IMG/VR virus record: IMGVR_UViG_3300028557_000030
DNA length: 64,000 nucleotides
Strand: one strand, 5' to 3'
Source: an uncultured virus (IMG/VR IMGVR_UViG_3300028557_000030)
Taxonomy: Duplodnaviria > Heunggongvirae > Uroviricota > Caudoviricetes
A program made the position numbers and the translations under genes. Position 1 is the first letter of the stretch; each line of letters starts with the position of its first letter. Shown here piece by piece: positions 3,382 to 24,267 of this stretch. The notes under the pieces are model-generated. The model made no database searches. It was not told the DNA's origin and saw nothing but the letters and a program-made list of their open reading frames with translations.

Positions 3382-4011
3382 ATGACTAATATCAAGCTAT
3401 CCAGCGACCATATCATACTATGGTTCAACATGATCAGAGACTTACCCGAGTCTGAACGTTCAAGAGGGCTAGATGCGTTCTGGGATGGCCAAGTGCATAG
3501 TAAGATATGGCTGTCTGAGATACTCAACAAACATTATGATAAAAGGATTCCTAGCAACATCTATATCTTTGGTGGATGGTTAGGTGTGTTGGCTAATATT
3601 CTATTTCAGAATAGCAAGTTCTATGTTGATACGATTTACAACATTGACCTTGATCCGTGGTGCAAGCCAAACAGCGAAAAGCTAAATCAAACTTATGTCA
3701 ACATGCAACGATACTATGCAGACACTGCCGATATGAAAGAATATCAGTACGCGGATACTGCGGACATCGTTATAAACACAAGCACCGAACATGTGACACA
3801 AGAAACATATGATCAATGGTATGATAACATACCTCATGGTTCATTGGTAGTAGTTCAGGGTAATGATTTTTTCTCTTGCGACGAGCATGTAAGATGTAGC
3901 ATCAATCTAGATGACTTCATAAAGATGAATCGGGTTACTGATCCTATCTTTGCAGGTCAACTGGAGACTACTATGTATAATAGATTCATGTGCGTATTCC
4001 GCAAGTCTTAA
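3382..4011 (+). CDS. class I SAM-dependent methyltransferase
   Basis: IYIFGGWLGV (motif I), NIDLD (motif II), DIVINTSTEH. Start moved to 3382 because of the late promoter position. Confidence 0.75.
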   Translation: MTNIKLSSDHIILWFNMIRDLPESERSRGLDAFWDGQVHSKIWLSEILNKHYDKRIPSNIYIFGGWLGVLANILFQNSKFYVDTIYNIDLDPWCKPNSEKLNQTYVNMQRYYADTADMKEYQYADTADIVINTSTEHVTQETYDQWYDNIPHGSLVVVQGNDFFSCDEHVRCSINLDDFIKMNRVTDPIFAGQLETTMYNRFMCVFRKS

Positions 4012-7000
4012 TACTTACTTTCGTATCTAGCTTTTAACCAATCCCAATAATAGCTCTGTCGTAATACAGCTAGTTCACCGCCGGCTTCGTCATAGAATTC
4101 AATTCCGTCTAATGCTCCCTTGATAGACCACTCGCCGTAGTTACCTTTGCCGACACTAGTCCATACGTCAAGCCGTGTGATGGCTGCCGCATCGCCTGTC
4201 TCTGAATAGCATTTTAGTTTCACTGCTTCTCTGAAGGCAGTTCTCCATGTGCTATATTCGTCTGTGTCACCCAACACCGTACCCGAAATAAGGTCAACAG
4301 ACATATGCAGGCTGTCTAGTGTGAAGTCTAAGCCAACTCCCTCGTTTCCAAGGACCAGATTCTTGTTGTAAAGCACCATTGATTGGTGTCCGTAACACAA
4401 GTCATTGACAGGGTTCAATGCATTGAAGATATAGTGTTTGGGCTGCTGCATTCTGTCTGCTTGATAACTCCAATCAAACTTCTTATTGACAAATAACTTT
4501 GCAGGGATGCAAAAGAACCAAGGTGTCTTACTGCTTTCAGCAGCAGCGTGTAGTGCTTCTGTTCTGCCGTTGATACCGTCAACTCGGTGTATCTTATTAC
4601 GCAGTCCGTCAGTAAATTTCAACAAGTGTTCATAGTTTTGCTCAGCTACAGTTTCTCCGTTGCTAACAAACACTATGTCAAGCGGTTCGCTTTTTGTAAG
4701 TTTGGACATTCTCTTGACGTACGGATAATCATATAGTTCTTTCTTAACAATATCTTTGGCTTCTGCTGGCACGATGATTCGTGTTGCACCAGTGCTTGTT
4801 ATGATAATGTTCTTCGTCTCAGGGGACCATAGATTCATAGGTTCGTCAGGCGGAGCGTCCATAAACATATTGTCATCTGCAATGATCGTAGCATACGGGA
4901 ACCCTGTTATTTTATCTAGAGAATTCATATGCATGTCATCACTAGAAAAAATAAGAGGAGCCGGTAAACGAGAGGACCGTGTTGCACCATTGAAGTTGAT
5001 CTTGTGGTATTCTTCCAGCTTCTCTAGTTCATCAATAATTTCTTTCGTCTTGTTCACATCAATGAAGAAAGTATCTCCAAACTTCTGGGTGTCGCTCGGG
5101 AACACATGGAGATTATTCCTAGAGAACGGATCGCAGACATACGTGAAGTCAAACTGCGAGTAGTTACAAATACTTGAGCAAATCCAAAGATAGTGTTCTT
5201 TCTTTGCCGGCAACTGCTTGATAAAGTTCTTGAGTGTGTTCAAGTAGCTTTCATCATATGGTATCGTAGCTAATAACTTTCTTGCAGTTTGCCGTTCCAC
5301 TTGAACACTAACCTGTCGCAGTTCACTGTTTCCGTGATCAACCATAACAACATCATGAACGCAGGCAGTGGCTTTTGCTTTGGTAGTCTTGACAAAGTTC
5401 AGATTAGAAAGATGCTCGATGATGTTGATGTATTTCGTATCTTCTTTGAATGTCTCACAGTTAACCATGAAGGTAGTTCCCCAGTGAGACCACTGAGTCC
5501 CGAACACCTGCACCATTTTCATTTGCCAAGGGTTAGGGTAATATTCGAAGTCAAAGTCATCATAGTCTAGTTCACTGTTGAGAATCCAAATCATTTCAGT
5601 AGTTGCACGATTGGTGCAACGATTGATAGTATCTACCCATGAATTAAGATAGCGAGTCTTTTGAATCCTCATGCCAAACTTCGTTTTCAGTGTTTCAAAT
5701 CTAGTAGCAGATTCAGTATTGCCCCTGTCAACAAAGAAGAGGTCTGGCTTGACAAAGATTTTAGCTAGATACTTGTCATCCAATTCTACCCCGGATTGAA
5801 TGAAGTCTAAGTCAGTGTATCCTTGCAAATAGAACTTAGCATTGACAAAGTAAGTATGTGTACGTTCGCTTTCAGGAGAACCAAATACTGTCACGTTGAA
5901 CAGGCTATCCTTATCGGGTCTCCAACTAAAATCAAAGTCATCGTAGTTGATGTTCTTATTAAGCGCCCAAAACTGTTCGGTAGGATGTTTCTTGACTAAC
6001 TCGTCTAGCGTAGTTTCTATCGTATATCTAGGATATTCAATTTTACCTGTAGATAGAATTGAGTTTTCCATTCTAACTACAAATCCATCGTTGCCCGGCG
6101 TGACGTATTTAGGACCATCATCAACCCAGATGTCATCTAATCGAGTTGCAAACTGATAGATATACGGAGGAGATTTGGGATGCGGTTCCCATGAAAAGTC
6201 GAACCCAGAGGTATCTACGTTTTCAGGAAGATACCAGTTATCCATGCACGGTTTACGGACTGCTCGTTCTTCCATGTATACGTATTCAGTAGCGCCCGGG
6301 ACAACATATTGTATTGAAATCTTATCCTCCGGCTTGTTCCATTGGTTCCCCCACGCATAGATATACGGAGGAGCATCCGGATCAGGTACCCACGAGAGGT
6401 CAGCTAAGTATGAATCTTCTAGGTATTCATAACTGCTAGCATCACTAACTAACTTTGCCTTCTGGAAGTCTACATACTTAATCACCGAGCCTTCCGGCAT
6501 GTTGTACATAACAGTAGGCATCTTGACTGCATCGTACAACTCGTTACCGAATACGTAAGTGAAGGGAGGTTCTTTGGGGTCAGGTCTCCAAGTGAAGTCG
6601 AAGCTTGATTGATCGATTGGCTGGTGAACCTCCCACCTATCCCATTCAGGAAGAACAGGAGCGTCATTGCCCATGTACTTTCTATCTGTCGCGTCATCGC
6701 AATGATATTCCAAAGTAGGGCGGCTCGCCGCATCAACCCATTTGTTCCCCCATGTATATACATATGCTGGTTCTCTTGGGTCAGGACGCCATGACATATC
6801 AAACTTGGTCTTATCAACTTCTTGATGTTCTACCCACCTATCCCATTCAGGAAGAACAGGAACGTCGTCGCTCATATACTTTTTATCAGTGGCCCCGGGA
6901 GTTTGGTATACAAGCGTTGGTTTAAGTCTAGCATCAACCCATTTGTTGCCCCATATATAAATGTAAGCCGGTTCATTTGGAGCAGGTCGCCAAGAGAAAT

Positions 7001-7967
7001 CAAAGTTGTTTTTATCAACTTCTTGATGTTCTACCCACCTATCTTTTTCGGGAAGGACAGGAACATCGTTGCCCATGTACTTTCTGTCCGTTGCGTCATC
7101 GCAATGATATTCTAGGGTAGGGAAAACTGCTGCGTCAACCCATTTGTTGCCCCATGTATAAATGTATGCCGGTTCTCTTGGGTCAGGTCTCCAAGAGAAG
7201 TCAAAATTGTTCTTATCTACGTTTTGTACTTCTACCCACCTATCCCATTCAGGAAGAACAGGAAGTAACTCTGACATGAACTTTTTATCAGTAGCCCCGG
7301 GTGCGTGGTAAGAAAGTGTTGGTTTAACTGTAGCATCAATCCACTTGTTCCCCCAAACATAGATGAAGGGAGGTTCTCTTGGGTCAGGACGCCATGACAT
7401 GTCAAACTTGTTCTTATCAACTTCTTGATGTTCTGTCCAGCCAACAGCAGGCAACAACTCAACTATAGAAGACATGTACTTCTCAGTAGTTGCACCGGGC
7501 ACTCTATACTCTAGTACGTGCTTAAGCTGTGCAGGAAAGTACTTACACCCCCACTTGTATATGTAGGGCGGGTCAGTAGGGTCGGGATGCCATGAGAAAT
7601 CGAACTTGGAGTGATCGATCAGGTCAAGTTCAACCCAGTCATCGTCATTGATATTTCTGCGTATGACAGGATTGACATCACCGCGATAGATGATTATATC
7701 ACTGTGTTCTTTAGGGCACAACCATGTCCCGCTATCTTTCTGATGTTGACTAGGCCAGACGTTGTTGTGTTCTTCTGCCCATACATCTTCGTCGGGTAAG
7801 AATTCGAAATCAAAGTCCCAATCAAACCCTCGATAGTCGCAGAATTCATTGATGATCCAAAAGCTGTCAGTCGTACACTGTTGCCTAGCATCTTCTAATG
7901 ATTCTGCGAATTTTTCGCGAGGGTGTGTATTGGGTTTCTGATTAAAATAAAATACGTCCCTTAACAT
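4008..7967 (-). CDS. 1319-aa tandem-repeat protein with C-terminal glycosyltransferase(GT-A)-like domain
   Basis: About 8 repeats of FDFSWRPDPxEPxYIYxWG. The C-terminus (DIVFVSNGE...RVDGING...AAAESSKTPWFF...TWRTAFREAVKL) is clearly similar to the neighbouring GT-like ORF 15316-16317. Confidence 0.7.
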   Translation of the reverse strand: MLRDVFYFNQKPNTHPREKFAESLEDARQQCTTDSFWIINEFCDYRGFDWDFDFEFLPDEDVWAEEHNNVWPSQHQKDSGTWLCPKEHSDIIIYRGDVNPVIRRNINDDDWVELDLIDHSKFDFSWHPDPTDPPYIYKWGCKYFPAQLKHVLEYRVPGATTEKYMSSIVELLPAVGWTEHQEVDKNKFDMSWRPDPREPPFIYVWGNKWIDATVKPTLSYHAPGATDKKFMSELLPVLPEWDRWVEVQNVDKNNFDFSWRPDPREPAYIYTWGNKWVDAAVFPTLEYHCDDATDRKYMGNDVPVLPEKDRWVEHQEVDKNNFDFSWRPAPNEPAYIYIWGNKWVDARLKPTLVYQTPGATDKKYMSDDVPVLPEWDRWVEHQEVDKTKFDMSWRPDPREPAYVYTWGNKWVDAASRPTLEYHCDDATDRKYMGNDAPVLPEWDRWEVHQPIDQSSFDFTWRPDPKEPPFTYVFGNELYDAVKMPTVMYNMPEGSVIKYVDFQKAKLVSDASSYEYLEDSYLADLSWVPDPDAPPYIYAWGNQWNKPEDKISIQYVVPGATEYVYMEERAVRKPCMDNWYLPENVDTSGFDFSWEPHPKSPPYIYQFATRLDDIWVDDGPKYVTPGNDGFVVRMENSILSTGKIEYPRYTIETTLDELVKKHPTEQFWALNKNINYDDFDFSWRPDKDSLFNVTVFGSPESERTHTYFVNAKFYLQGYTDLDFIQSGVELDDKYLAKIFVKPDLFFVDRGNTESATRFETLKTKFGMRIQKTRYLNSWVDTINRCTNRATTEMIWILNSELDYDDFDFEYYPNPWQMKMVQVFGTQWSHWGTTFMVNCETFKEDTKYINIIEHLSNLNFVKTTKAKATACVHDVVMVDHGNSELRQVSVQVERQTARKLLATIPYDESYLNTLKNFIKQLPAKKEHYLWICSSICNYSQFDFTYVCDPFSRNNLHVFPSDTQKFGDTFFIDVNKTKEIIDELEKLEEYHKINFNGATRSSRLPAPLIFSSDDMHMNSLDKITGFPYATIIADDNMFMDAPPDEPMNLWSPETKNIIITSTGATRIIVPAEAKDIVKKELYDYPYVKRMSKLTKSEPLDIVFVSNGETVAEQNYEHLLKFTDGLRNKIHRVDGINGRTEALHAAAESSKTPWFFCIPAKLFVNKKFDWSYQADRMQQPKHYIFNALNPVNDLCYGHQSMVLYNKNLVLGNEGVGLDFTLDSLHMSVDLISGTVLGDTDEYSTWRTAFREAVKLKCYSETGDAAAITRLDVWTSVGKGNYGEWSIKGALDGIEFYDEAGGELAVLRQSYYWDWLKARYESKY
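6630..7440 (-). repeat. 201-bp (67-codon) intragenic tandem repeat
   Basis: The motif cccacctat recurs at 6632, 6833, 7034 and 7235, an exact 201-bp period. Confidence 0.9.
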
Positions 7968-7980
7968 CTACTACTTAGTT

Positions 7981-8157
7981 CTACGTTTCTGGGTATTCAT
8001 ATGTCTCGTCTGTGGGCTTGTTCTTGAAGATATGCTGTAGGATCATAGCACGGTCAATCAAACGTTGATCACCGCCAGCTTGTTCAGCAGCCTCAACATA
8101 CATGCCCAACGCTAAGGTGATGATACCATTATCTGAATTGAATACTAGATCGTCCAT
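7981..8157 (-). CDS. small hypothetical protein (58 aa)
   Basis: Hand translation MDDLVFNSDNGIITLALGMYVEAAEQ...YEYPET*; the start overlaps the stop of the upstream ORF (TGATG). Confidence 0.6.
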   Translation of the reverse strand: MDDLVFNSDNGIITLALGMYVEAAEQAGGDQRLIDRAMILQHIFKNKPTDETYEYPET

Positions 8158-8417
8158 CAGGCGTCCTTAAAAAGGGTAAGCGATGAACACTTCATGATTC
8201 TATCATTAGAGTCACGAATCATTACTTCGATATCATTGATATCGGTATCAATCGTTACCTGTGCTGCAACGTCCTCACCGAAGGTAGCACGGAGGTCTTC
8301 CATGACCAAATCACATGTTTCTTCAGTTAGTTCAGTACCCACGTACTTTTCCATGATACTCTTGACTCTATTTCCCATATTGTAATCAATATGGCCTTTG
8401 CTTTCAACAACTGACAT
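8157..8417 (-). CDS. hypothetical protein
   Basis: ORF track; GAGGAG RBS upstream. Confidence 0.7.
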   Translation of the reverse strand: MSVVESKGHIDYNMGNRVKSIMEKYVGTELTEETCDLVMEDLRATFGEDVAAQVTIDTDINDIEVMIRDSNDRIMKCSSLTLFKDA

Positions 8418-8491
8418 AAGTTTTCTCCTCTAAGTCTCTAAGTTTATTTAATTCAGGGAAGGTGCCCCGAAAGTTTTCATCGCTGGTTTGG

Positions 8492-8758
8492 TTAATGGAA
8501 CTTCAACGTCATCCAAACTAACAATTCTTCACTCAGTATATAGCACGAGACAGCCACTCCTGCTTCATATGACTTCCAGGCGTCATATGACTTCCAAAGA
8601 TGCGAAGGTTGAGTTTCTATCCATTTTCCAATATCGTATCTTACTGAATATACCTTTTCAGAAGTAGGCATATGTATTCCGACCATTTCCCACCCGAGAT
8701 CACCTATGTAAAGACTAGCTAATGGAATAGTCCAACGTTGACTTACTGTACAGATCAT
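8492..8758 (-). CDS. hypothetical protein
   Basis: ORF track; TAAATA on the minus strand at 8783-8788. Confidence 0.55.
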   Translation of the reverse strand: MICTVSQRWTIPLASLYIGDLGWEMVGIHMPTSEKVYSVRYDIGKWIETQPSHLWKSYDAWKSYEAGVAVSCYILSEELLVWMTLKFH

Positions 8759-8808
8759 TCTTATCTTTCCTTGAGATTTTAGTATTTACTGCTGTATAGT
8801 TAACATTA

Positions 8809-8815
8809 ATAAATA
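8809..8815 (+). promoter_or_regulatory. T4-late-like promoter for the cyclitol operon
   Basis: ATAAATA ends 7 nt before ATG 8823. Confidence 0.6.
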
Positions 8816-8822
8816 CTAGACT

Positions 8823-9548
8823 ATGAGTTTAGTTATATGCATGTCAGGAAATAATACACGATTTCACAACGTGGGGTTTGATGTTCCAAAATATCTGTTA
8901 CCGTGGGCTGATAATACTATAATTTACTCAATTTTAGCTGAACTTAACCCGACCGAAGAAGTTATCCTACTGGCTAATAAGCGCGACCTTTACTTCAAAC
9001 CAAAATTATTATCATCAATCGAGTCTTTGGGTATCACTGAAAATAACGTGCATTACATAAATGATACCTCAGGGCAAGCACATACTGCGGCGATTGCGGC
9101 TGAACTTGTCAAAGATAAATCAGCACCATTTTTGATTCATAATGCGGACACGGTAGTTTATAACCGAAGTTTGTCTAATATCCATGTTGCATTAACACAC
9201 TGTGATGCATACATTGATACCTTTATTGCCAACTCTCCTGCATACTGTTATGTTCATATAAATAACAGAAAAGTGTCTGCTATAGTAGAGAAAAGGGCAA
9301 TATCCCCGTTCGCTAGCTCTGGTCTATACGCATTCAAAAACGCTCATGTTTACCTTGAAAAGTTCAACGAACTCTCAGCGAATTTCATTGGTTCAGAAAT
9401 GTATATATCAAACTTACTCAGTCATATGCTATCCACTGGATCAACTATTACAACAAACGAAATTGATAGCAGTCATTCGACTACCGTGCTTGGAACACCA
9501 CAAGAGTACGGGTTAGAACTAACCCGATTGCAGTTTAGCAAACAATGA
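8823..9548 (+). CDS. sugar-phosphate nucleotidyltransferase (NTP_transferase-like)
   Basis: ICMSGNNTRF..GFDVPKYLL (variant of GxGxR...PK), IHNAD, EKRAIS, GLYAF, LGTPQE. Confidence 0.8.
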   Translation: MSLVICMSGNNTRFHNVGFDVPKYLLPWADNTIIYSILAELNPTEEVILLANKRDLYFKPKLLSSIESLGITENNVHYINDTSGQAHTAAIAAELVKDKSAPFLIHNADTVVYNRSLSNIHVALTHCDAYIDTFIANSPAYCYVHINNRKVSAIVEKRAISPFASSGLYAFKNAHVYLEKFNELSANFIGSEMYISNLLSHMLSTGSTITTNEIDSSHSTTVLGTPQEYGLELTRLQFSKQ

Positions 9549-10516
9549 TCAAAACGAAGTTAAAGGGAGGGTCGTTAAGTGCTACATACTTGTGCGACCG
9601 TGCCGGCAACAAATTTGTACGCAAGGAAGTTAGCACCACTGATAATCGTGAATACGGGTTTGTAAGGTGGTACTCACAGCTAAAAAAATTACAGCGTATG
9701 GGTCAAGAATTTCCGGATCTGTTTCCGCGAGTACTTTCCGTATCAATAGAGCGAAACACCGCGTACTTTGATATTGAATATTTTCATGACTTTGTTGATT
9801 TAAAAACCTTTTTATGTAGTGCTGAGATATCGTCGGACACCTTGGAAAAAATCGTAACTCAAGTGTTTGATAGTCTATCTATCTTACATGCTAAAACTTA
9901 CCGTGCCAGTCCCGATGCGGCAAAACTATACTATTACGAAGAAGTAATACAAAAAATAGCAGACGCTGTTGCATCTAGCACAGACTTTGCTGAATTTTAT
10001 GAGATCGGCAACTACCAATTTCACGGCGAAGAAGTAAACGCAATACAGCAATACTTGCCGGCACTTGAACAATTCTTTGCTACTTTTAATGTGACTACTG
10101 AATGCTATGTTCATGGTAACCCAACACTAGAAAATATAATGTACTCCCCGTCAAACGATATTGTTAAGTTCATTGATCTATACGAAGAGGGAATCATTGA
10201 CTGTCCGGAACTTGACTTCTCACAGATATTACAATGCTCACACAGCTACTACGGTTTCATTAATGATAACTCTGTAGTCGTGAATAACAATATAGTATCT
10301 CATGATTTAAGTGTCCCGCAAGCATTGCAGGACTTTAATAAAGTATTTGAGAGCAAGCTATCAAATTTTGATATGCGTATATTACGAATATTTGAGGCAA
10401 CACAATTTATTAGAATGCTTCCATTTAAATGTGCTGCAGGGGACATCACCAAAGCAAAGTATTTTTATACTCATGCTTGCTACCTACTAGGAAGATGTTT
10501 CAATGAATCAAACTAA
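9545..10516 (+). CDS. aminoglycoside/choline-phosphotransferase-like kinase
   Basis: LKGGSLSATY Gly-rich loop, VRK lysine, HGNPTLENI...KFID Brenner-like motif; ATGA overlap with the upstream gene. Confidence 0.7.
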   Translation: MIKTKLKGGSLSATYLCDRAGNKFVRKEVSTTDNREYGFVRWYSQLKKLQRMGQEFPDLFPRVLSVSIERNTAYFDIEYFHDFVDLKTFLCSAEISSDTLEKIVTQVFDSLSILHAKTYRASPDAAKLYYYEEVIQKIADAVASSTDFAEFYEIGNYQFHGEEVNAIQQYLPALEQFFATFNVTTECYVHGNPTLENIMYSPSNDIVKFIDLYEEGIIDCPELDFSQILQCSHSYYGFINDNSVVVNNNIVSHDLSVPQALQDFNKVFESKLSNFDMRILRIFEATQFIRMLPFKCAAGDITKAKYFYTHACYLLGRCFNESN

Positions 10517-11642
10517 GATGTTGCCAGAGTTTGTAAACTTTAAAAGAAACTGGGAAGTTAACACTGACTTACCCACTTCATTCCGTATTGTTTACTCTAA
10601 CGATGTGTTTAATGTAAGTAATGAAGATTTGTTATCATACTCCACGAGTACTAGGCGATTAGTAATCATTGACCAAACTGTATACGAGTTATACAAAGAT
10701 TCAATGAATGAATACTTCAACCATCATTCTATAGAATTATGTCTACTTGTAATCGATGCAACTGAATCTAATAAAAATTGGAACACCGCTCAGGAAATAC
10801 TGAAGTTTTTTGAAGATAACAAGTTACTTAGACGAGAAACTGTCATTGGTGTCGGCGGCGGCGTACTCTTAGATATCGTTGGGTTCGCTGCTAGTTTATA
10901 TCGGCGCGGCATACAGTATATTAAAGTACCTACTACGTTACTCGCTATCGTTGATGCTTCAGTTGGTGCCAAAGTAGGCATTAACCACTTTGAACGTAGA
11001 AACAGACTTGGATCATATTATCCGCCCATTGCTTCATTGATTGATCGAAAGTTTATTAGTACCCAATCAGAGCGTGAGATTAAAAACGGCATATGCGAAA
11101 TGTTTAAGCTCGCGGTTATTAAAAGCGAGGAGTTATTTGATATTCTTGATCAAAACGCAGACCAGCTATTGACTGAGAAGTTCCAACTCGGTGCTGTTCC
11201 GGTACGTGCAATCAATCTTGCAATTACCGGAATGATTGAAGAACTGGCTCCAAATCTATGGGAAAAAAAATTAGATCGTTGCGTAGATTTTGGTCATTCA
11301 TTTAGTCCAATGATTGAGATGAAGAACTTACCAAACATGAGCCACGGTGAGGCAGTATTATTAGATTGTGTTTTTAGTTCCTGTGTTGCATTTGTGCGAG
11401 AGTTAATTACGATAGATCAACTTAACACCATCGTCGGTGCTGCCCGCAAGTTAAAACTACAAGTATATCACGATGATTTCACCGACACTGCATTATTAGA
11501 AGCCGCATTGAGTGACACTAGGTTACATCGCAATGCAAATCAATACTTACCGATGCCAGCCGGAATTGGTAAATATGTAATACTGAATGATGTTACAACC
11601 GACAACATTAGTAAAGCAATCGAAGTTTATAAGTCATTATGA
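10503..11642 (+). CDS. sedoheptulose-7-phosphate cyclase, 2-epi-5-epi-valiolone synthase (EEVS) type
   Basis: DHQS-fold motifs GGGVLLD, YRRGI, VPTTLLAIVDASVGAKVGIN and HGEAV. EEVS-type MIEELAPNLWE and RCVDFGHSFSP (DHQS has LNxGHT; DDGS has LELExPNLHE and RVIAxGH). Confidence 0.88.
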   Translation: MNQTKMLPEFVNFKRNWEVNTDLPTSFRIVYSNDVFNVSNEDLLSYSTSTRRLVIIDQTVYELYKDSMNEYFNHHSIELCLLVIDATESNKNWNTAQEILKFFEDNKLLRRETVIGVGGGVLLDIVGFAASLYRRGIQYIKVPTTLLAIVDASVGAKVGINHFERRNRLGSYYPPIASLIDRKFISTQSEREIKNGICEMFKLAVIKSEELFDILDQNADQLLTEKFQLGAVPVRAINLAITGMIEELAPNLWEKKLDRCVDFGHSFSPMIEMKNLPNMSHGEAVLLDCVFSSCVAFVRELITIDQLNTIVGAARKLKLQVYHDDFTDTALLEAALSDTRLHRNANQYLPMPAGIGKYVILNDVTTDNISKAIEVYKSL

Positions 11643-12301
11643 AAACTGCTGTAGTAACTGGTACTAGTCGCGGATTAGGAAAAGACATTGCATTAACTCT
11701 ACTAGAAAGAGGCTGGCAAGTATATGGGCTAGCACGTGGTAATTCAAATATCGTACATGTTAACTACCAACACTTTCGCGGTGACATAACTGACCATGAA
11801 GCTGTTGCTAGTATGATATCGCAAGTCAGTCAAATTGATTTACTAGTAAACAATGCTGCTGTATTTGAAATGTGTTCGTTTGGTGATTCTCAAATGGAGT
11901 CTATAAGCAAAATCATTGACACCAATGTTAAAGGCACTATGTATGTTACAAAGATATGCTTACCGGTAATGAATGCTGATAGTAAGATAATCTTCATTAA
12001 CTCAGTTGCTGGGTTAGGAGAATTAGAGAATCAATCTGTCTATTGTGCGTCAAAATATGCGTTAACTGCATTTGCCGGCGTACTTGGCAAAGAGTTGCGT
12101 AGTCGTAAAATTAAAGTAGTAAGCATACACCCCGGCGGAATTAACACTTCATTGTGGAATGAATCAAACCCTTACCCGATCGGAGACGTTGGAGATGCTA
12201 TTGATCCAAACCAGATTTCAGAGTTGATTCTTTTTATACTAAGCAATAGCAATGTTGAATTCAAAACGGTGAAACTGTTCCCAGAAGCTGAGTGGCATTA
12301 G
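11639..12301 (+). CDS. classical short-chain dehydrogenase/reductase
   Basis: TGTSRGLG, NNAA, catalytic S...YCASK, HPGG; ATGA overlap with EEVS. Confidence 0.9.
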   Translation: MKTAVVTGTSRGLGKDIALTLLERGWQVYGLARGNSNIVHVNYQHFRGDITDHEAVASMISQVSQIDLLVNNAAVFEMCSFGDSQMESISKIIDTNVKGTMYVTKICLPVMNADSKIIFINSVAGLGELENQSVYCASKYALTAFAGVLGKELRSRKIKVVSIHPGGINTSLWNESNPYPIGDVGDAIDPNQISELILFILSNSNVEFKTVKLFPEAEWH

Positions 12302-12935
12302 GTAAACTGTGGTATTTAAGCAACAGGCGCCGGCGTCTATCGTAAAGATGATCATAGTACATCAAAGTTTGAATGTTAATCTCAACGTTATCCGGAATGT
12401 TGGGCCTATAAAGTCTTCCATGATAAGGAGCTAAAACGGCATCAAATTTCTTTGCAATATAATACAGGTATTCATGTGATTTAAACGCCGAAGTGAAGTC
12501 CGAAAATTCGCTGTATTCATTTACAATTCGTTTAAAAATACCAAACGGTACAACAAACATGATGTCATTGGCACTTTGTACTTGATCATCATAGTTAATC
12601 ATTACTTTATCATCACTAAGCTGTATTTGCTGAATAAGCGGACTGATGTCGGTAATATATAAATCAGGTCGAGATACTAACACTAGTTGATCGTCTGAAA
12701 ATCTCATCGTTGCAGCATAATACTGCCAACGATAATATATTTTGTTTGTATTATTATTAGTAGGGTAAAACTTCCAATCCAACCCTACTACATTGGCATT
12801 TGGGTACGCTGACCTTGCCATGTCAACGCTCGCTGAATCAACACAGAGTGTTATATTTGCGTTTGGTATTTTTTTCCAATTTTCTGCACATTTGGTTCCG
12901 GTTCTGAACTCTCCGGATAAAAAAATTTCAATCAT
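12261..12935 (-). CDS. putative glycosyltransferase-like protein (SGxxRT/RxD type)
   Basis: Likely start MIEIFLSGEFRT at 12935; SRPDLY and ANDIMF; similar to ORF 12963-13820. Confidence 0.5.
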   Translation of the reverse strand: MIEIFLSGEFRTGTKCAENWKKIPNANITLCVDSASVDMARSAYPNANVVGLDWKFYPTNNNTNKIYYRWQYYAATMRFSDDQLVLVSRPDLYITDISPLIQQIQLSDDKVMINYDDQVQSANDIMFVVPFGIFKRIVNEYSEFSDFTSAFKSHEYLYYIAKKFDAVLAPYHGRLYRPNIPDNVEINIQTLMYYDHLYDRRRRLLLKYHSLPNATQLLGTVSPF

Positions 12936-12962
12936 ACTAGTCTCTCTTCCTAATCTTCTCAA

Positions 12963-13820
12963 TTACCGTCGACTTAGCAGGCTCCGAAGTCTAAGCTGAC
13001 AGTGAGGCTTGCCCTGTGATATCCAAAACTCTTCCATCTCAATAAGTATACGGTCATGCCAAAGTTCTTTTACTCGCTTAATACCATATTCTATTATCTG
13101 TTGTTCAATCAAGGCATATCGCCAAGTATTACTTTTAACGTGAATCTTTTCAAATGTATCATCTTCAATAGTAGCATTGGGTCGGCAAAAACAATAACGC
13201 ACCGTAGGGACAATCTGCGCTAACATAATATTTCTATCTGTCAGATCCTGCCAAAACCAGGTATGCCAATCACCTTGGTCGGCGTTCCCCCACTTATCAA
13301 TGTCAAGCCCGCCAATTGCTGAATGCATGATTGCCGGAGACCCAAGTAATACTATATCGTCTTGAGAGTTATTACCCATTGGCCAGCCAGAATATAACAC
13401 ATTGCTTTCAATATTTTTAACTCTCTCAATGATCAATTCTATTTTCATTGAAGGTTCTTGGAAATAAATATCAGGACGAATAATCATGATTGCATCATAT
13501 TCGAAACCACTGTATTTTATTAAATCTAGCCCGCGCCGCCAGCGATGAATCATCTTACTGTTATATCTTGCTAGAGATTTGTTAAACATAGTGCTACTTT
13601 CATAGCAATACCCAGTAAGTTGTTTATCATCCAATGAGTTTTTTACTCTGTCTAACGTAACTTCTTCATCATGTATTATCTTTAACCGATGGCTTTGATG
13701 ATAAGTTCGATCCCAGGTGCTAAAGTAAACATCAATGCAGTCATCATATAAAAAACCCATAGACTTTTTTGCCAAGTCAAAAGTCCGATATTCCCCGCTG
13801 ATTAATACTGCAATTTTCAT
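12963..13820 (-). CDS. putative glycosyltransferase-like protein (SGxxRT/RxD type)
   Basis: MKIAVLISGEYRTF, DVYFSTW, YDAIMIIRPD, QDDIV; ATAAATA at 13826-13832. Confidence 0.55.
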   Translation of the reverse strand: MKIAVLISGEYRTFDLAKKSMGFLYDDCIDVYFSTWDRTYHQSHRLKIIHDEEVTLDRVKNSLDDKQLTGYCYESSTMFNKSLARYNSKMIHRWRRGLDLIKYSGFEYDAIMIIRPDIYFQEPSMKIELIIERVKNIESNVLYSGWPMGNNSQDDIVLLGSPAIMHSAIGGLDIDKWGNADQGDWHTWFWQDLTDRNIMLAQIVPTVRYCFCRPNATIEDDTFEKIHVKSNTWRYALIEQQIIEYGIKRVKELWHDRILIEMEEFWISQGKPHCQLRLRSLLSRR

Positions 13821-13871
13821 ATCACTATTTATTTACTGTCAAGCGTTGATACATAATGCTACCCGCATATT

Positions 13872-15311
13872 TTATAATCTCTTCCATCTATTATACATAT
13901 CTTCAAGTTCAGGGAATGTTTCTAGGAAATTGGTTCCGCGCCTACGATCATGCTCATCAACAAAAGCAACAAAGTTCTTTCTGTTTACATTAGTGAATTC
14001 ATTGTGTTGATTATTTTTCATGATGTTATATATACGCTTTAACTTATCGGCTTCATGCTCATAGAAGCCTCTATTAGCAGTGCCATACCATCCTTTGTAC
14101 TCTAAGTTACGATACATGTGAGTTACTTGATCGTATATCAGGTGTAACATTTCCGGTTCAAGCATGAACACTGCTTGATGATCTGGATAACGTAAATAAG
14201 GAATGTCTAACAACATAGGGTTTCTTTCGCTGTCATGTCTTCCAAATTCTCGTTTGATTTCAAGAACGTCATCCAAAAATTTATTATACGTAGTAAGGCT
14301 AAGAATGTTATATGTACTCATGACAGTGAAATCTATTTCTGGAATTTCTTTGTACATGCGACGAATGTTTGTCAACCACATGTCGTAGTTCATGCCGAAT
14401 CTTATGTAGTCACACTGTTTACCGTGCGCCTCTGCACTAGTAAACATTTTGAATTTCTTAACCTTTTTTTCATCAATGATAATCTTTACTTTTTCTAAAA
14501 ATTTATTGAAAATTGCAGCGGGTGGATTCATATTACTATTGATACTAACTTCAAGATTGGGATTAGGATTATCGATGATGTAATCCAATACCTTAAAGGT
14601 ATCTTTACTAAGTAACGGTTCGCCACCTGTAATACGGAAATGCTGTAAACTGCCATACATCCTTGGCCACCATTCCCAAAACGCATCAACGTATGGGTTT
14701 TCTTCTCGGTTCGGAATAGGCATCATGCCTTCTTGTTTAAGCCATCCTAAATTATTAAATTGAGTGCTTGTGGGATACGGTCCGAATTTTTCAATCTCTT
14801 CCATCCACTTGCTACTGATGTGCGGAGCACAATAGCTACACTTAAAGTTACATACGTTACTAAAACTTACTTCTACATAGCTAGGATCAACGTTATCATC
14901 CCATGGCTTAGCAGCAATGTCTTGGATGTGTGGAGCTGCCCAGCTATCTGCACTCTTATAAACACGATCACTCAATGCACCATTACCATCGTCTTCTACT
15001 TTCCAACAATAATCACACTCAGCCGGTCGCTCTCCTTCAAGCATCATTTTTCTCTGTTGCTTTTTATATTCACTATTATGAAGTGCTGTAGGATTTCGTT
15101 TGATTTCTTCTACTGGTACTACGTGGGTCTTTGGATGGTGACAGCTATGATTCATGCCATTCTGAAGATGCATGGTAACCTGCTTCCATTTTGCCGCGCA
15201 AAAGCTAGAACTTACCTCATCTAGTTCGGCTTTTGTATTCTGTAAATGTTGTTGGTAGTTGTCAAAAGTTCCCACTTTTGCTTTACGATGGTTTATGTTG
15301 AGCAGGGACAT
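13872..15311 (-). CDS. radical SAM protein with N-terminal auxiliary Cys cluster
   Basis: CNFKCSYC (CxxxCxxC) and TGGEP; extra N-terminal Cys (FCAAKW, SCHH, CDYC). Confidence 0.88.
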   Translation of the reverse strand: MSLLNINHRKAKVGTFDNYQQHLQNTKAELDEVSSSFCAAKWKQVTMHLQNGMNHSCHHPKTHVVPVEEIKRNPTALHNSEYKKQQRKMMLEGERPAECDYCWKVEDDGNGALSDRVYKSADSWAAPHIQDIAAKPWDDNVDPSYVEVSFSNVCNFKCSYCAPHISSKWMEEIEKFGPYPTSTQFNNLGWLKQEGMMPIPNREENPYVDAFWEWWPRMYGSLQHFRITGGEPLLSKDTFKVLDYIIDNPNPNLEVSINSNMNPPAAIFNKFLEKVKIIIDEKKVKKFKMFTSAEAHGKQCDYIRFGMNYDMWLTNIRRMYKEIPEIDFTVMSTYNILSLTTYNKFLDDVLEIKREFGRHDSERNPMLLDIPYLRYPDHQAVFMLEPEMLHLIYDQVTHMYRNLEYKGWYGTANRGFYEHEADKLKRIYNIMKNNQHNEFTNVNRKNFVAFVDEHDRRRGTNFLETFPELEDMYNRWKRL

Positions 15312-15315
15312 TCCG

Positions 15316-16317
15316 TCACCATCCTTCTATTTTGCGTATGACATCCATCTCTTTCACGAGCGGACCTAGATTATATTTATCGGCATTGTAGTGACGCTTA
15401 AAGAACTTGGACTGCGTTGCATCAAGTGTGCAGATAGGTAGACCTAACTTGTCTTGCAATTCTTCACCTATTTCTTCTGCATAATGTATAGGATTCGTTC
15501 TATGCTTCTCCCATAATTCAGGGAAGTTGTCGAACCATGCGACATCTCTGTAGTCCCAATCAGTTAGCATAGTCATATATGTACCTAATCTAGCACCATA
15601 TATAGCCCAAGACCCGTTCTCTACATCCATACCAACATTTTGCCATATCGTGAGATTGTTTAGATTACGATTAGATACTCTTTGCTTAAAGTCATCTATA
15701 CTGGGCTTTGCTCCCCGATCAAGTACCATCTTGACACCTTCTCGGAATCCTGCTCGCCATGCTTGGAAGGGAGTGTAGTTAGGATACGTAGTAGAGTAGC
15801 AGTCATACATCGCCCAATATAGATTGTCTGAGGAATCCATACAGAAGTCAACTGCTGTGGCATCGCCTCCGTCGCTAGTCTCATGCGTCTTCATGTTAGC
15901 AACATATGTCTTTGTCCAAGAAGACATTCCGCCATTACCGTAGCGTAGTCCGTTGATAGCATTGACTGCTCTCCAGCGATACTGTGCTAACTTATAATTA
16001 GGGTCTCTGTCTGTGAAGTCTAGTTGTAGATTAAAGAAGTTCTCATCGGGCATGTTATCGCCGTCAATGAGAATGAAGCGTTCAGTGGTAGACGCTTCAC
16101 CTGCTGCTTTGTGTGCGGCGTCCGAACCTTTGACCCCGTCTACTCTAACAGCCCAGGGACACATGTTCTTAATCTTTAACCAGAATTCTTCTTTCTGGGG
16201 TTCGTCATAACTTAGATATACACAATCTAAGTCAGCTACATCAATTATATCATCAGAGTTCATATACTGCAAGTTTCCAATACTGTTTTTCAATGTCGTC
16301 GTCTTCGCTGACGACAA
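15316..16317 (-). CDS. glycosyltransferase-like protein (GT-A fold)
   Basis: DCVYLSYDEP, RVDGVKGSDAAHKAA, FILIDGDN (DxD), AWRAGFREGVKM. Confidence 0.65.
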   Translation of the reverse strand: MSSAKTTTLKNSIGNLQYMNSDDIIDVADLDCVYLSYDEPQKEEFWLKIKNMCPWAVRVDGVKGSDAAHKAAGEASTTERFILIDGDNMPDENFFNLQLDFTDRDPNYKLAQYRWRAVNAINGLRYGNGGMSSWTKTYVANMKTHETSDGGDATAVDFCMDSSDNLYWAMYDCYSTTYPNYTPFQAWRAGFREGVKMVLDRGAKPSIDDFKQRVSNRNLNNLTIWQNVGMDVENGSWAIYGARLGTYMTMLTDWDYRDVAWFDNFPELWEKHRTNPIHYAEEIGEELQDKLGLPICTLDATQSKFFKRHYNADKYNLGPLVKEMDVIRKIEGW

Positions 16318-16597
16318 CGCTTAAGTCTTCTGCCGCACACAGAGTCCCTTCTGTGCTAGGCACCAATCTAATGATAGTTGCGTTAGGAGCATCTTTGATT
16401 ATCCTTCCGTCAACTACTCTTACGTCATGTCTACCCTCAGCAAATGCCAGAGCATCGATAACGATGTAATTACCTTCTAATAGCTTTTCACCAGTATAGC
16501 ATATAACAGAACCTAAGTCATCATAATAAAGCCTGAATTCGGGCTTTTCGATGATCGGAGCTTCCCAAATGAACATTTCTTCATTGTTATCACTCAT
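16253..16597 (-). CDS. hypothetical protein
   Basis: ORF track; translationally coupled within the operon. Confidence 0.7.
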   Translation of the reverse strand: MSDNNEEMFIWEAPIIEKPEFRLYYDDLGSVICYTGEKLLEGNYIVIDALAFAEGRHDVRVVDGRIIKDAPNATIIRLVPSTEGTLCAAEDLSVVVSEDDDIEKQYWKLAVYEL

Positions 16598-17349
16598 CTT
16601 AGCTTCTCCAAAATAGTGTCAGCGAAATGCTTCATATGATAGTGAAACGGATACAGTTGCGGTATCGTATTGACTCTGATAGTATGAGGTAATATCTCAC
16701 ACGCAAATGTCTTAGTCCAGTCTTCCGAAGGTGTATTGTTGATGTACTGCTTCATGTGCACCATTGCCATTGGCTCAAATTGAGGTAATGTAGTTTTCTC
16801 AACACCTATCACATGAGATGCGATTGCATATACCCAATCGGTGGTAGCAAGTTCATCAACGTTACACTTCATCGTCTTGCGGAAGTCTTCCCAATTCTCC
16901 CAGATAGTTCTAGTGGTCTCAAAGAACTGCTGGGCTGCAGGGGATTTCCTAAAGTAAGTGATTCCGTTGTACGTATCAGGTAGACTGTTCTCAAGAATGA
17001 ATCTACGATAGAAAGTAACAGTAGAATCTTCTTGCATAAAGTTCTTCATTCGTGTACAAATAACAACGTCACGATCAGCGAGAGCGTCAAACCAATAGTC
17101 AATAGAACGTGGAATAAACATATCTGCTTCTAGCTTGATAGTATATTCATATGGACTAGCTTCATAAACTTGCCAATCGTTTTGTAGCTTCCATGCTGTA
17201 TCAGGACACTGATCACCGTGTGGCAGCATGTCAGTTGTGATGATAGTCACATTGGCATCGGGCATCACTCGCTTGATGCTGAGTTCAAGAGCCTGAGCGC
17301 ACTTGACGTATTCGTCACCTTGCGCCATGATGACAAAACCCTTATCCAT
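16594..17349 (-). CDS. GT8-like glycosyltransferase
   Basis: Likely start MDKGFVIMAQ; SPYEYTIKLEAD (DxD-like) and YNGITYF; similar to 17342-18148. Confidence 0.6.
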   Translation of the reverse strand: MDKGFVIMAQGDEYVKCAQALELSIKRVMPDANVTIITTDMLPHGDQCPDTAWKLQNDWQVYEASPYEYTIKLEADMFIPRSIDYWFDALADRDVVICTRMKNFMQEDSTVTFYRRFILENSLPDTYNGITYFRKSPAAQQFFETTRTIWENWEDFRKTMKCNVDELATTDWVYAIASHVIGVEKTTLPQFEPMAMVHMKQYINNTPSEDWTKTFACEILPHTIRVNTIPQLYPFHYHMKHFADTILEKLR

Positions 17350-18148
17350 TGATGATGCCCACAAATAGTTCTTTGTCCATGACATGAAAGTCCATGTCTT
17401 TAACGGTCAGATACTCTTTACGAACTTTCCCGCGCTGCCAATTGTCAAACGTTACTGTAAACTCAGTGTCCAACTCATCATCATTGTTCTTATAAATTTG
17501 AGTGTTGCTTCCGATGTGAATTAGATTCCAAGGAATGAAATCGCTCTTAGTGGTTAGGTGCCCGTTGACGATGTCCATAGCGATAGTCAACGCATAGTCG
17601 TTGCGATAGATGCCGGTATTAAATGAATGCAGGTTCATATAGTATTCGTAATTGTTCTGAACCATCTGCATACATTCAAAGATGCGCTTTGCGTTGTCAG
17701 TCTTCTTGAATGCGATCACTGTTGCCCAAAGAGAGTTGTAGCCGTAGTAGCTGATCTTCTCTTGTTCAGCATTGGGCTGCATGAGAAAGTCAATAGTATC
17801 GTGACAAATAAAGTCATCGTACATGTCGAACAGCGTTGACAGCTTGTTTGAATTTACTACATAGTCTACATCGATCAACAGGGTTTCGTCATACGGGGTG
17901 AGTTCATATGCTTGCCATCTGCCTTTGTTGATCCATGTACCCCAAACACGAGTGTTGTTCTTATCTGGAACAACCTTGATCACGTTGTCCCAAACGTAGT
18001 CTGGCTGTTCTGGGTATGAGTCTTCATCCGTAACAATAGTCACAGGTAAATCGAGAAAATGCGTTATGCGTCTAGCAGTGTATTCTGCCATCTCATAGTA
18101 ATTGAATTTCTCAGTATTAAAGGCAAATAGAATGGCTCCGCGAGTCAT
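17342..18148 (-). CDS. GT8-like glycosyltransferase
   Basis: TPYDETLLIDVDY (DxD), WATVIAF, RNDYAL. Confidence 0.65.
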   Translation of the reverse strand: MTRGAILFAFNTEKFNYYEMAEYTARRITHFLDLPVTIVTDEDSYPEQPDYVWDNVIKVVPDKNNTRVWGTWINKGRWQAYELTPYDETLLIDVDYVVNSNKLSTLFDMYDDFICHDTIDFLMQPNAEQEKISYYGYNSLWATVIAFKKTDNAKRIFECMQMVQNNYEYYMNLHSFNTGIYRNDYALTIAMDIVNGHLTTKSDFIPWNLIHIGSNTQIYKNNDDELDTEFTVTFDNWQRGKVRKEYLTVKDMDFHVMDKELFVGIING

Positions 18149-18459: not shown

Positions 18460-18508
18460 CGTATCTCCTAGAAGTATTTAGATGGATATGCGAGTTGCGA
18501 TTAAAAAA

Positions 18509-19465: not shown

Positions 19466-19477
19466 TATTCGTTCCTA

Positions 19478-20710: not shown

Positions 20711-20744
20711 TATTAAATCGCTCCGTTATTCTTATTTATCATTG

Positions 20745-21689: not shown

Positions 21690-21696
21690 TGCTAGC

Positions 21697-24249: not shown

Positions 24250-24267
24250 TTCACCTACACTCCGTTA

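Follow-up and report, generated by a model that had tools for sequence, protein, structure and literature searches.

What does the compact group of four genes between positions 8823 and 12301 of this phage DNA make? The window, i.e. the whole stretch of 64,000 nucleotides analysed here, is from a freshwater T4-like phage of sunlit lake water and encodes a gp55-like late sigma factor (55060-55959), gp46/47-like nuclease subunits and baseplate proteins. Its ORF list revealed four overlapping genes on the plus strand, coding for a nucleotidyltransferase (NT), a kinase-like protein, a cyclase and an SDR in this order, with overlaps of 4, 14 and 4 nt. They are set among neighbours of opposite strand, as the original prediction had it, since the minus strand holds every long ORF at 4008-8758 and 12261-24888. 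The GC content is 0.375-0.392 across 8-14 kb compared with about 0.42-0.46 for most of the window. A radical-SAM gene lies close to the cassette in the window and in three related loci (L079-L081). The four-gene set probably leads to a nucleotide-activated carbon-ring "pseudo-sugar", in the phage of the window as in many related uncultured phages; if this is true, a compact viral set converts a common sugar phosphate into such a compound.

The third gene (10503..11642, plus strand) encodes a 379-aa protein with both domains of the DHQS superfamily (PF01761, E 6.7e-37; PF24621, E 2.1e-16), which we assign to the sedoheptulose-7-phosphate (S7P) cyclases of EEVS type. Comparison with PDB sequences showed 291 bits for 4p53, 221 for 5tpr, which we take to be a DDGS, 139 for the best DHQS and 89 for DOIS. 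4p53 is given as the ValA structure in the available part of PMC4426668. The translation contains both of the EEVS-type motifs that had been quoted for the protein, MIEELAPNLWE and the RxxDFGHSFSP pattern (as DRCVDFGHSFSP). All 21 aligned homologues and all 22 viral rows share D262 and H342; at these sites the cyclase of a Nostoc mys cluster, which adjoins an O-methyltransferase and a D-Ala-D-Ala-ligase-domain gene, has A and T. The fingerprint sites separating EEVS from DDGS are presumably D281 and H360 of ValA, a numbering that agrees with the printed alignment once shifted by 6. E199, H265 and H281, which we take to be the Glu/His/His metal-ligand positions, are conserved across all 54 alignment rows. 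In a quick tree the phage cyclases formed a clade (SH-aLRT 99) within the SH7P-cyclase group. Bit scores, D262/H342 and the tree thus agree with the predicted EEVS type as opposed to DHQS or DDGS, an assignment by sequence that does not separate EEVS from EVS. Homologues of the cyclase are often auto-named '3-dehydroquinate synthase' in public data and TIGR01357 matches it with 212 bits, but an ordinary 3-dehydroquinate synthase (aroB) of shikimate metabolism is hardly credible: the score stays below the 305-bit cut-off, the protein is far nearer to ValA than to any DHQS, it has EEVS-type residues at the D262/H342 sites where aroB has N/A or N/V, its clade is separate from aroB, and no further shikimate genes lie nearby.

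The first gene (8823..9548, plus strand) codes for a 241-aa nucleotidyltransferase of the sugar-1-phosphate type, which matched PF00483 with 37.6 bits (cut-off 21.2) and phrog_3980 with E 2e-35. Its family profile detected 4evw, annotated 'NDP-sugar pyrophosphorylase' (E 2.7e-32), and RmlA (E 5e-8) in the PDB, and the protein is nearest to these enzymes and not to IspD or LicC. G9, R13 and K23 are invariant, and in the N-terminal G..(T/S)R loop the protein has the variant SGNNTRF, compared with AGLNTRF as family consensus. The last gene (11639..12301, plus strand) encodes a classical SDR of 220 aa (PF00106, E 9e-40) and probable ketoreductase, with profile matches to ketoreductases as good as E 6e-41. 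The TGxxxGxG motif and the full N-S-Y-K tetrad are represented by invariant residues (T7, G8, G12, G14, N96, S122, Y135 and K139), and R33 is nearly invariant.

A Pfam scan of the second gene product (9545..10516, plus strand; 323 aa) gave no match. Its AF2 model (pLDDT 93.8) revealed the bilobal fold of APH/choline-kinase-type small-molecule kinases (Foldseek probability 1.00, E 1e-7 to 1e-5, TM 0.45-0.6), with matches to MTR kinase (MtnK), N-acetylhexosamine 1-kinase (NahK), LicA, FN3K, APHs and maltokinase. Pfam, Foldseek and profile matches together bear out the gene classes predicted for these three proteins. All 24 kinase-like sequences retain K27, E36, N197 and D211, which by analogy would bind ATP/Mg. 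The catalytic loop is the non-canonical HGNPTLEN, whereas kinases have HGD. Asparagine replaces the catalytic aspartate in 23 of the 24 aligned sequences (21 HGN, plus LGN and FGN), HGD being retained by an archaeal homologue (L085) alone. The only sequence-level PDB matches were to the JAK2 pseudokinase domain, which also has HGN (E 0.01). The protein may be a weak kinase, or no kinase at all.

In our main reading, to which we give a probability of about one in two, an NDP-cyclitol would be formed from S7P by cyclisation, reduction of the ketone, phosphorylation and addition of a nucleotide, and the adjacent DUF7796-family transferases would use it late in infection. The four genes would form a self-contained pathway and a mobile cassette of T4-like phages of aquatic bacteria. 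The EEVS-type cyclase would convert S7P to a C7 cyclitol ketone (2-epi-5-epi-valiolone or a close epimer) with loss of the phosphate, a step that is well supported by the sequence. The SDR, probably NADPH-dependent, would then turn the C1 ketone into a pseudo-anomeric hydroxyl, on which the APH-fold kinase-like protein would place a phosphate; among the enzymes nearest in fold to this protein are MTR kinase, NahK and maltokinase, all of them anomeric-OH kinases. The RmlA-like NT would yield the NDP-cyclitol, and the products of two flanking genes, o285 and o233, would transfer either cyclitol or cyclitol-phosphate to an acceptor, be it glycan or protein, of the virion or the host envelope. In this scheme the choice of nucleotide, the site of phosphorylation, the acceptor and the timing are all inferred.

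If true, the pathway parallels in carbocyclic form the NDP-heptose route (GmhA, HddA/HldE, GmhB, HddC), which is likewise fed by S7P, and it is a shortened GDP-valienol route. As in the heptose route, an anomeric phosphorylation would be followed by a small NTP_transferase-family enzyme and give an activated C7 unit for envelope glycans. The cyclase would replace the isomerase of that route, so that the ring becomes carbocyclic, and remove the phosphate, so that no phosphatase is needed; the cassette differs by an added reductase and by a kinase of a different fold family. Anomeric kinase and nucleotidyltransferase are also paired in salvage (NahK/GlmU, AmgK/MurU, LicA/LicC), where an APH/choline-kinase-fold kinase likewise accompanies a nucleotidyltransferase of about 230-250 aa, and the phage protein has NahK and LicA among its top matches by fold. 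The salvage kinases, however, keep the catalytic Asp, and their substrates are true sugars or choline.

For the GDP-valienol branch (AcbC/ValA, AcbU, AcbR/ValB, AcbN), the accessible sections of PMC9200736 describe a comparable course: an EEVS acts first on S7P, and SDR-type reduction, a 1-OH kinase and a cyclitol-1-phosphate nucleotidyltransferase lead to an NDP-cyclitol donor, with AcbU as cyclitol 1-kinase and AcbR/VldB as cyclitol-1-phosphate nucleotidyltransferase of the acarbose and validamycin pathways. That branch needs seven or more enzymes compared with four in the phage, where C7 kinase, epimerase, dehydratase and phosphatase are absent from the cassette and no ROK kinase, cupin or epimerase adjoins it in the window. 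Further differences are the APH-like fold with HGN of the phage kinase-like protein, the NT, which is nearest to RmlA/4evw whereas AcbR/ValB resemble glucose-1-P adenylyltransferases in the same sections (PMC9200736), and the setting, actinomycete secondary metabolism in contrast to a virus. The characterised pseudoglycosyltransferases, e.g. VldE and AcbS, appear there (PMC9200736) as GT-B enzymes (GT20, GT5) that form C-N bonds and need an amine nucleophile, whereas the conserved phage neighbours are DUF7796-family/GT-A-like. The NDP-carbasugar pathway of the original prediction is supported in part, by the gene classes, the EEVS-type cyclase, the co-occurrence of the genes and the GT-like flanks; the missing catalytic Asp, the lack of an epimerase or dehydratase and the GT-A-like instead of GT-B neighbours weaken it.

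The flanking proteins are GT-like, as had been predicted. The o285 gene (12963..13820, minus strand) encodes a DUF7796-related protein (93.9% with our f4/DUF7796 family by hhalign) whose AF2 model (pLDDT 92.3) has a predicted GT-A-like nucleotide-diphospho-sugar-transferase fold. VIA-align gave Z 12.4 for GnT-I (rmsd 3.3, 182 residues aligned), 12.1 for Mnn9 and 10-12 for many GT-A enzymes, with the nucleotidyltransferase IspD similar at 11.6; Foldseek TM-scores were only 0.32-0.45. S8, G9, R12, R115 and D117 are invariant in the family, and the invariant R115-P-D117 is not a canonical DxD. The o233 gene (12261..12962, minus strand; true start likely the ATG at 12935) converges on the 3' end of the SDR gene with an overlap of 41 nt, and its GT-A-like product is a paralogue of o285 (hhalign with the o285 family profile: 95% probability, E 3.9e-8, 181 columns, from residue 11). 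The o285 protein is a candidate transferase for the cassette product.

The same route to the NDP-cyclitol might also end in another kind of transfer: the neighbouring enzymes would hand on cyclitol-1-phosphate and create a phosphodiester, like LicD, fukutin, TagF or Stealth enzymes with their donors CDP-choline, CDP-ribitol, CDP-glycerol or UDP-HexNAc. No bond to the carbocycle need then break. The cassette has no dehydratase, and the donor would therefore be a saturated carbasugar with neither ring oxygen nor allylic activation, which this chemistry would accommodate; kinase and small nucleotidyltransferase form a pair similar to LicA/LicC, with LicA among the top fold matches, and the o285 fold fits nucleotidyltransferase-type and GT-A enzymes about equally. 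We consider it unlikely, as the NT is closer to RmlA-type sugar-1-P enzymes than to LicC, IspD or TarI, no LicD, Stealth or TagF family match was found among the neighbours, and the GT2 and GT1 enzymes near cellular copies of the cassette belong to ordinary glycosyl-transfer families.

Comparison with other genomes revealed that the four genes indeed co-occur as predicted, contiguous and in the same order, in 64 of the 67 viral loci with room for all four. The other three keep kinase-like, cyclase and SDR genes and have an NT-family gene about 3 kb upstream, 23% identical to the NT of the window. A DUF7796-family gene accompanies the cassette in 70 of the 73 viral loci that extend far enough upstream, and the window has two divergent copies. 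Among large viral records with the cassette, the T4-type capsid protein Gp23 was found in 5/5 and psbA in none of the five. Cellular copies sit in polysaccharide gene clusters, close to GT2 (L082, L083), GT1 (L083), GT61 (L084) or a Wzx-like flippase and an epimerase (L085). Phage and giant-virus glycan islands (GtrABC seroconversion, virion glycosylation, nucleotide-sugar pathways) likewise combine nucleotide-sugar synthesis with virus-encoded transferases in a low-GC variable region. Use of a sugar-phosphate cyclase or a carbasugar is not known to us from any such island; literature searches found no viral glycan system with either and no paper describing such a cassette in a virus.

These contexts bear on whether the product is transferred at all. 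Lacking a dehydratase or epimerase step, the cassette would give a saturated NDP-cyclitol, and carbasugar nucleotides of this saturated type are known to inhibit glycosyltransferases and not to serve them as donors. The end product could be cyclitol, cyclitol phosphate or NDP-cyclitol itself, a non-transferable donor mimic or glycosidase inhibitor without acceptor, directed at host envelope-glycan synthesis, competing phages or the enzymes of grazers. EEVS-derived C7 cyclitols typically inhibit enzymes, as reported for acarbose, validamycin and kirkamide in the portions available of PMC9200736, PMC12904256 and bioRxiv 10.1101/2022.09.27.509721, and the cassette travels as a four-gene unit between differing flanks. 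Still, GT-A-like genes adjoin the viral cassette almost always, glycosyltransferases and a flippase adjoin the cellular one, and nucleotide activation is costly for a free inhibitor, which makes this quite unlikely. Hypermodification of phage DNA by the NDP-cyclitol, like the glucosylation of hydroxymethylcytosine in T-even phages, would suit the T4-like carriers with their Gp23, the DnaB-like helicase gene close to the cassette in many relatives and the radical-SAM gene mentioned above. It is very unlikely given that no T4-type DNA glucosyltransferase family occurs among the neighbours scanned and that, in cells, the cassette belongs to polysaccharide clusters that include a flippase.

A gadusol-like UV screen, to which a nearby methyltransferase would convert the EEVS product, had also been suggested; such a compound might also serve as an antioxidant. 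EEVS and a methyltransferase-oxidoreductase make gadusol in vertebrates (PMC4426668, in its available part), a methyltransferase family is found in 50 of 80 viral loci, and the lake water is sunlit. Gadusol synthesis, however, needs no kinase or nucleotidyltransferase; because both are conserved with the cyclase, and as the ORFs scanned (4008-17385) gave no methyltransferase match, this origin is highly improbable.

Late expression, the last element of our main reading, was approached through the ATAAATA motif, a candidate -10 element of T4-type late promoters, at 8809..8815 (plus strand; context AATAAATA), separated by 7 nt from the ATG at 8823. The exact T4 octamer TATAAATA was not found upstream of the cassette in a search of the window, where AATAAATA stands instead; its single copy in the window is at 9257, within the first cassette gene. 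The 7-mer occurs 14 times in the window compared with 14.65 expected, a count no higher than chance. Its placement is different: for 7 of the 14 copies a start on the same strand follows within 30 nt, which is the case for 61 of 1608 other A/T-only 7-mers (Fisher p 4.5e-7). Same-strand copies stand 4-27 nt ahead of seven operon-leading gene starts, some of them structural; among the starts are those of a 6090-aa ORF, a baseplate-wedge gene, two genes with virion-structural-protein PHROG matches and o285. The cassette thus has the motif in common with virion genes, as first proposed. With four start codons only 4-7 nt away, ATAAATA could be a feature of translation initiation rather than the promoter that we infer. 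The NATAAATA motif that they have in common suggests late transcription of both the cassette and the o285 operon, alongside the virion genes; the copy preceding the GT-A-like o285 gene (13826..13832, minus strand) lies 5 nt before its start.

The four cassette genes lie on the plus strand between long minus-strand ORFs and encode a nucleotidyltransferase of 241 aa (8823-9548), a kinase-like protein of 323 aa (9545-10516), a cyclase of 379 aa (10503-11642) and an SDR of 220 aa (11639-12301). Successive ORFs share 4, 14 and 4 nt, which confirmed the original observation of four overlapping plus-strand ORFs amid minus-strand genes. The region at 8-14 kb is the GC minimum of the window (0.375-0.392).

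The cyclase contains both domains of the DHQS superfamily and reached 212 bits with the NCBIfam aroB model, under the cut-off of 305 bits. Comparison with known structures gave 291 bits for 4p53, 221 bits for 5tpr, which we take to be a DDGS, 139 bits for the best DHQS structure and 89 bits for a DOIS structure. 4p53 is ValA, the reference EEVS, and the portion of the source consulted tells EEVS and DDGS apart by two active-site positions (PMC4426668). The phage cyclase has Asp262 and His342 at these sites, and both residues are invariant in 21/21 close homologues and 22/22 viral alignment rows. We take the discriminating positions to be ValA D281 and H360, a numbering that fits the chain alignment with an offset of 6. 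At the same two sites a Nostoc cyclase has Ala and Thr, and its gene adjoins an O-methyltransferase gene and a D-Ala-D-Ala-ligase-domain gene, presumably the layout of a mycosporine cluster; annotated aroB proteins show Asn, followed by Ala or Val.

A quick maximum-likelihood tree (IQ-TREE) was calculated from 54 rows of 103, with sequences below 300 aa dropped and near-duplicates removed at 88% identity. The viral cyclases form one clade (SH-aLRT 99), in which two cellular sequences are nested. Its sister consists of one archaeal and one Fibrobacteria cyclase, both with partner genes (support 96), the next branch out is a Chloroflexota clade (support 94), and the viral and allied group is well separated from aroB (support 99). 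The best score with ValA, the Asp/His pair and the distance from aroB in the tree all agree with the predicted EEVS type, not DHQS or DDGS, a class that here covers EEVS or EVS. At the level of sequence the cyclase step, with S7P as substrate, is well supported, and a plain DHQS is barely credible beside these scores and residues.

The gene classes named for the other three proteins (nucleotidyltransferase, kinase fold and reductase SDR) likewise hold. The nucleotidyltransferase passes PF00483, and its family profile matches 4evw ('NDP-sugar pyrophosphorylase') at E 2.7e-32 and RmlA enzymes at E 5e-8. The SDR is classical, with a complete catalytic tetrad and a conserved Arg33 that suggests use of NADPH. 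The kinase-like protein has no Pfam match. Its model (pLDDT 93.8) shows an APH/choline-kinase fold with 5-methylthioribose kinase, N-acetylhexosamine 1-kinase, LicA, PsiK, fructosamine-3-kinase, aminoglycoside kinases and maltokinase as top Foldseek matches, several of which phosphorylate an anomeric hydroxyl. All aligned members of the family share Lys27, Glu36, Asn197 and Asp211. The catalytic loop (residues 190-197) reads HGNPTLEN, and Asn replaces the usual catalytic Asp in 23/24 aligned members (21 HGN, one LGN and one FGN), HGD being found only in the archaeal locus L085. The sole sequence-level PDB match is the JAK2 pseudokinase domain, which likewise has HGN (E 0.01). This loop is the main internal weakness of the kinase assignment, and kinase activity is what we infer from the predicted fold. 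Glu196, directly before the Mg-binding Asn, is also invariant in the family.

Searches of cultured-phage records revealed no match for the cassette by blastn and no close relative of the cyclase by tblastn; identities there reached at most 33%, with the annotation aroB wherever one was present. In one viral-contig collection the cyclase gave 111 tblastn-confirmed matches and 80 loci were kept, with cyclase identities of 52-66% apart from the window's own record; the kinase-like family comprised 857 protein clusters at E <= 1e-5. Synteny was counted in 79 viral loci besides that record, 67 of them with room for four genes. The order nucleotidyltransferase-kinase-cyclase-SDR is contiguous in 64 of these 67 testable loci, so that the co-occurrence in other genomes on which the original prediction had been staked is present. 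The remaining three (L079-L081) retain kinase-cyclase-SDR. A RuBisCO-large-chain-like gene (L079:5937-7055; PF00016, E 1.8e-32) immediately precedes the kinase-like gene, where the other loci have the nucleotidyltransferase, and a nucleotidyltransferase-family gene 23% identical to that of the window lies about 3 kb away. A carbamoyltransferase is found downstream of the SDR in the same three loci.

As judged from its sequence, the window derives from a T4-like phage: it has genes for a late sigma factor resembling gp55, for nuclease subunits resembling gp46/47 and for wedge and hub proteins of the baseplate, as well as an ORF of 6090 aa. All five large cassette-bearing records (133-172 kb, of which one is complete and has terminal repeats) encode Gp23 (about E 1e-143) and none carries psbA (0/5), which marks the carriers as T4-like phages, probably other than cyanophages. 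A 48-kb uncultured viral record (G001) is 100% identical to the window over the 5-kb stretch tested and represents the same sequence as a fragment; the stretch occurs in lake and freshwater metagenome runs (22 runs listed, none RNA). The cassette flanks in the window differ from those of most relatives, so that the cassette behaves as a mobile module. Many cassette phages encode a DUF6267 protein a few genes upstream (L011:2923-4149) and, a few genes downstream, an 844-aa protein whose N-terminus is cytidyltransferase-like and whose middle part resembles Zeta-toxin/AAA kinases (L011:11245-13779), for which a NadR-like role in nucleotide salvage is possible.

Two protein families accompany the cassette in its viral relatives. 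The first, f4 (237 aa), occurs in 70 of the 73 loci that leave room on the upstream side, in most cases as the immediate upstream neighbour of the cassette, and the second, f5 (236 aa), in 62 of the 70 that leave room on the downstream side, where it mostly follows the cassette at once. In some relatives there are also nucleotide-sugar dehydratases or epimerases, a DegT aminotransferase, a 2OG oxygenase and a methyltransferase. Nine of 12 f4 members match Pfam DUF7796 (best E 3.5e-9). Profile comparison related the window ORF o285 (12963-13820, minus strand) to f4 (93.9%), and the adjacent o233 (12261-12962, minus strand) is in turn related to the o285 family (95%). The o285 model (pLDDT 92.3) has a GT-A-type fold, with VIA-align Z-scores of 12.4 to GnT-I and 12.1 to Mnn9 and matches to many further GT-A enzymes; it is near nucleotidyltransferases too (IspD, Z 11.6 by VIA-align), and its Foldseek TM-scores are only 0.32-0.45. 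With the predicted fold of o285 and the family match of o233, the proposed GT-like flanking proteins stand. Profiles of the DUF7796-like and f5 families found nothing significant in the PDB. The f5 family has no Pfam match and a weak language-model lead to WavE, and hhalign found it unrelated to f4 and to o233; no match to the o285 family was obtained with the window ORFs o333 and o263.

A twitch-domain radical SAM protein (13872-15311, minus strand; NF033640, 345 bits, cut-off 170) adjoins the GT-A-like genes, and homologues with 63-72% identity lie at the edge of L079-L081. An 842-aa ORF adjoining the cassette in the same three loci matches both o333 (15316-16317, minus strand; 30%) and a 1319-aa protein of the window (4008-7967, minus strand; 29%), so that the three look related. 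The 1319-aa protein consists of about eight tandem FDFSWRPDP...YIYxWGNKW modules and has no Pfam or PHROG match.

The copies in cells are few and have envelope-glycan genes as neighbours. The cyclase locus of a gammaproteobacterial MAG (L082) has a GT2 and a citrate synthase nearby, that of an Actinomarina single-cell genome (L083) four GT2, one GT1 and a methyltransferase, that of L084 a GT61, and that of the archaeon an epimerase, two nucleotidyltransferases and a Wzx-like flippase. The L082 and L083 cyclases nest in the viral clade despite their cellular-looking flanks, which suggests transfer between phage and host in either direction. Chloroflexota and actinomycete cyclases with 37-41% identity lack partner genes, and plasmid-borne clusters annotated 'sedoheptulose 7-phosphate cyclase' contain ROK kinases instead of the APH-fold type.

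The most economical reading of the four genes is a four-step route, in which the SDR, kinase and nucleotidyltransferase steps are assigned from family and context. The cyclase would convert S7P to a C7 ketocyclitol with release of phosphate, the SDR would reduce the C1 ketone, the kinase-like protein would add a phosphate to the new pseudo-anomeric hydroxyl and the nucleotidyltransferase would form an NDP-cyclitol. The available text on the acarbose pathway provides precedents in the reductase AcbN, the 1-kinase AcbU and the valienol-1-phosphate nucleotidyltransferase AcbR (PMC9200736). GT-A-like genes accompany the cassette constantly in viruses, and glycan genes do so in cells, which suggests a role of the activated cyclitol as building block, not as end product. 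EEVS cyclitol pathways are described, in the parts of the sources consulted, from bacterial secondary metabolism (acarbose, validamycin, kirkamide; PMC9200736, PMC12904256) and vertebrate gadusol synthesis (PMC4426668). Among the rival readings of the cassette, an inhibitory end product is unlikely with these neighbours, and a gadusol-like sunscreen is most improbable. Judged by context, use of the NDP-cyclitol for DNA hypermodification is also quite improbable.

We give a probability of about 0.3 to the reading that T4-like aquatic phages and a few bacteria and archaea build C7-carbasugar glycoconjugates, in which the mostly viral GT-A-like DUF7796 family would attach the NDP-cyclitol to acceptors of the virion or the host envelope by an O-ether or a phosphodiester bond. 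The parts of the original prediction concerning cyclase type, gene classes, co-occurrence, GT-like neighbours and the late motif stood; product, transfer chemistry and target are the parts that we infer. As the cassette contains no dehydratase, the donor would be saturated. According to a 2022 paper, known pseudoglycosyltransferases belong to the GT-B type and depend on an amine nucleophile, and every natural pseudo-oligosaccharide then known was C-N linked and GT-B-made (PMC9200736); a 2025 paper reportedly describes C-O formation by ValL. Movement of cyclitol-phosphate as a phosphodiester would be chemically easier given a saturated donor, and we regard it as doubtful. If the glycoconjugate reading is true, the product would be a 'pseudo-glycan' resistant to removal by glycosidases and a new class of natural glycoconjugate, and in view of the C-N, GT-B precedents its transferase chemistry would be new as well.

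The cassette lacks the C7 kinase, epimerase, dehydratase and GT-B transferase of the valienol-type pathway and is for this reason not a member of it; its nucleotidyltransferase is also of a different type, and its kinase-like protein differs in fold from the ROK cyclitol kinases of the plasmid clusters. In the way it works it would come closest to an NDP-heptose route made carbocyclic, or to a salvage pair of anomeric kinase and nucleotidyltransferase set after an EEVS. A literature search by title, with most subscription journals and supplementary AMG tables outside its scope, revealed no phage cyclitol or valiolone pathway. A viral version would be a new auxiliary metabolic function drawing on the host pentose-phosphate pool, compact and widely distributed as judged by the cyclase matches, the kinase-like clusters and the capsid gene in all large records. 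A minimal four-enzyme route to a nucleotide-activated carbasugar would be of interest for glycosidase-resistant glycomimetics, and the DUF7796 family would be a new candidate for the transfer of a carbasugar or of cyclitol-phosphate.

The motif ATAAATA is located at 8809-8815, with 7 nt separating it from the first ATG of the cassette. Its abundance in the window is at chance level (14 copies found, 14.65 expected); 7 of the 14 copies are followed within 30 nt by a start codon on their own strand, versus 61 of 1608 other A/T-only 7-mers (Fisher p 4.5e-7). The seven genes led by the motif are the 6090-aa ORF, one baseplate-wedge gene, two genes with virion-structural-protein PHROG matches, the first cassette gene, o285 and an ORF at 1-1218. 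The motif copies have the context NATAAATA in common, which we take to be the late-promoter consensus of T4-like cyanophages, and the exact T4 octamer TATAAATA occurs as a single copy in the window, within the first cassette gene. The late-type motif originally noticed before both cassette and virion genes is borne out by these start-proximal copies, and late expression of the cassette would be consistent with it. In 4 of the 7 the motif is only 4-7 nt from the ATG, so that transcripts would be leaderless; the motif may at this distance be a translation-initiation feature. For the 6090-aa ORF (25065-43337, minus strand), which is situated just ahead of the baseplate genes, the motif and the ATG are 5 nt apart; its product is presumably a giant virion or fibre protein. 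The GC content, usually 0.42-0.46 in the window, rises to 0.529 at 48001-50000, inside a 1283-aa baseplate-hub/lysozyme-like ORF (47301-51152).
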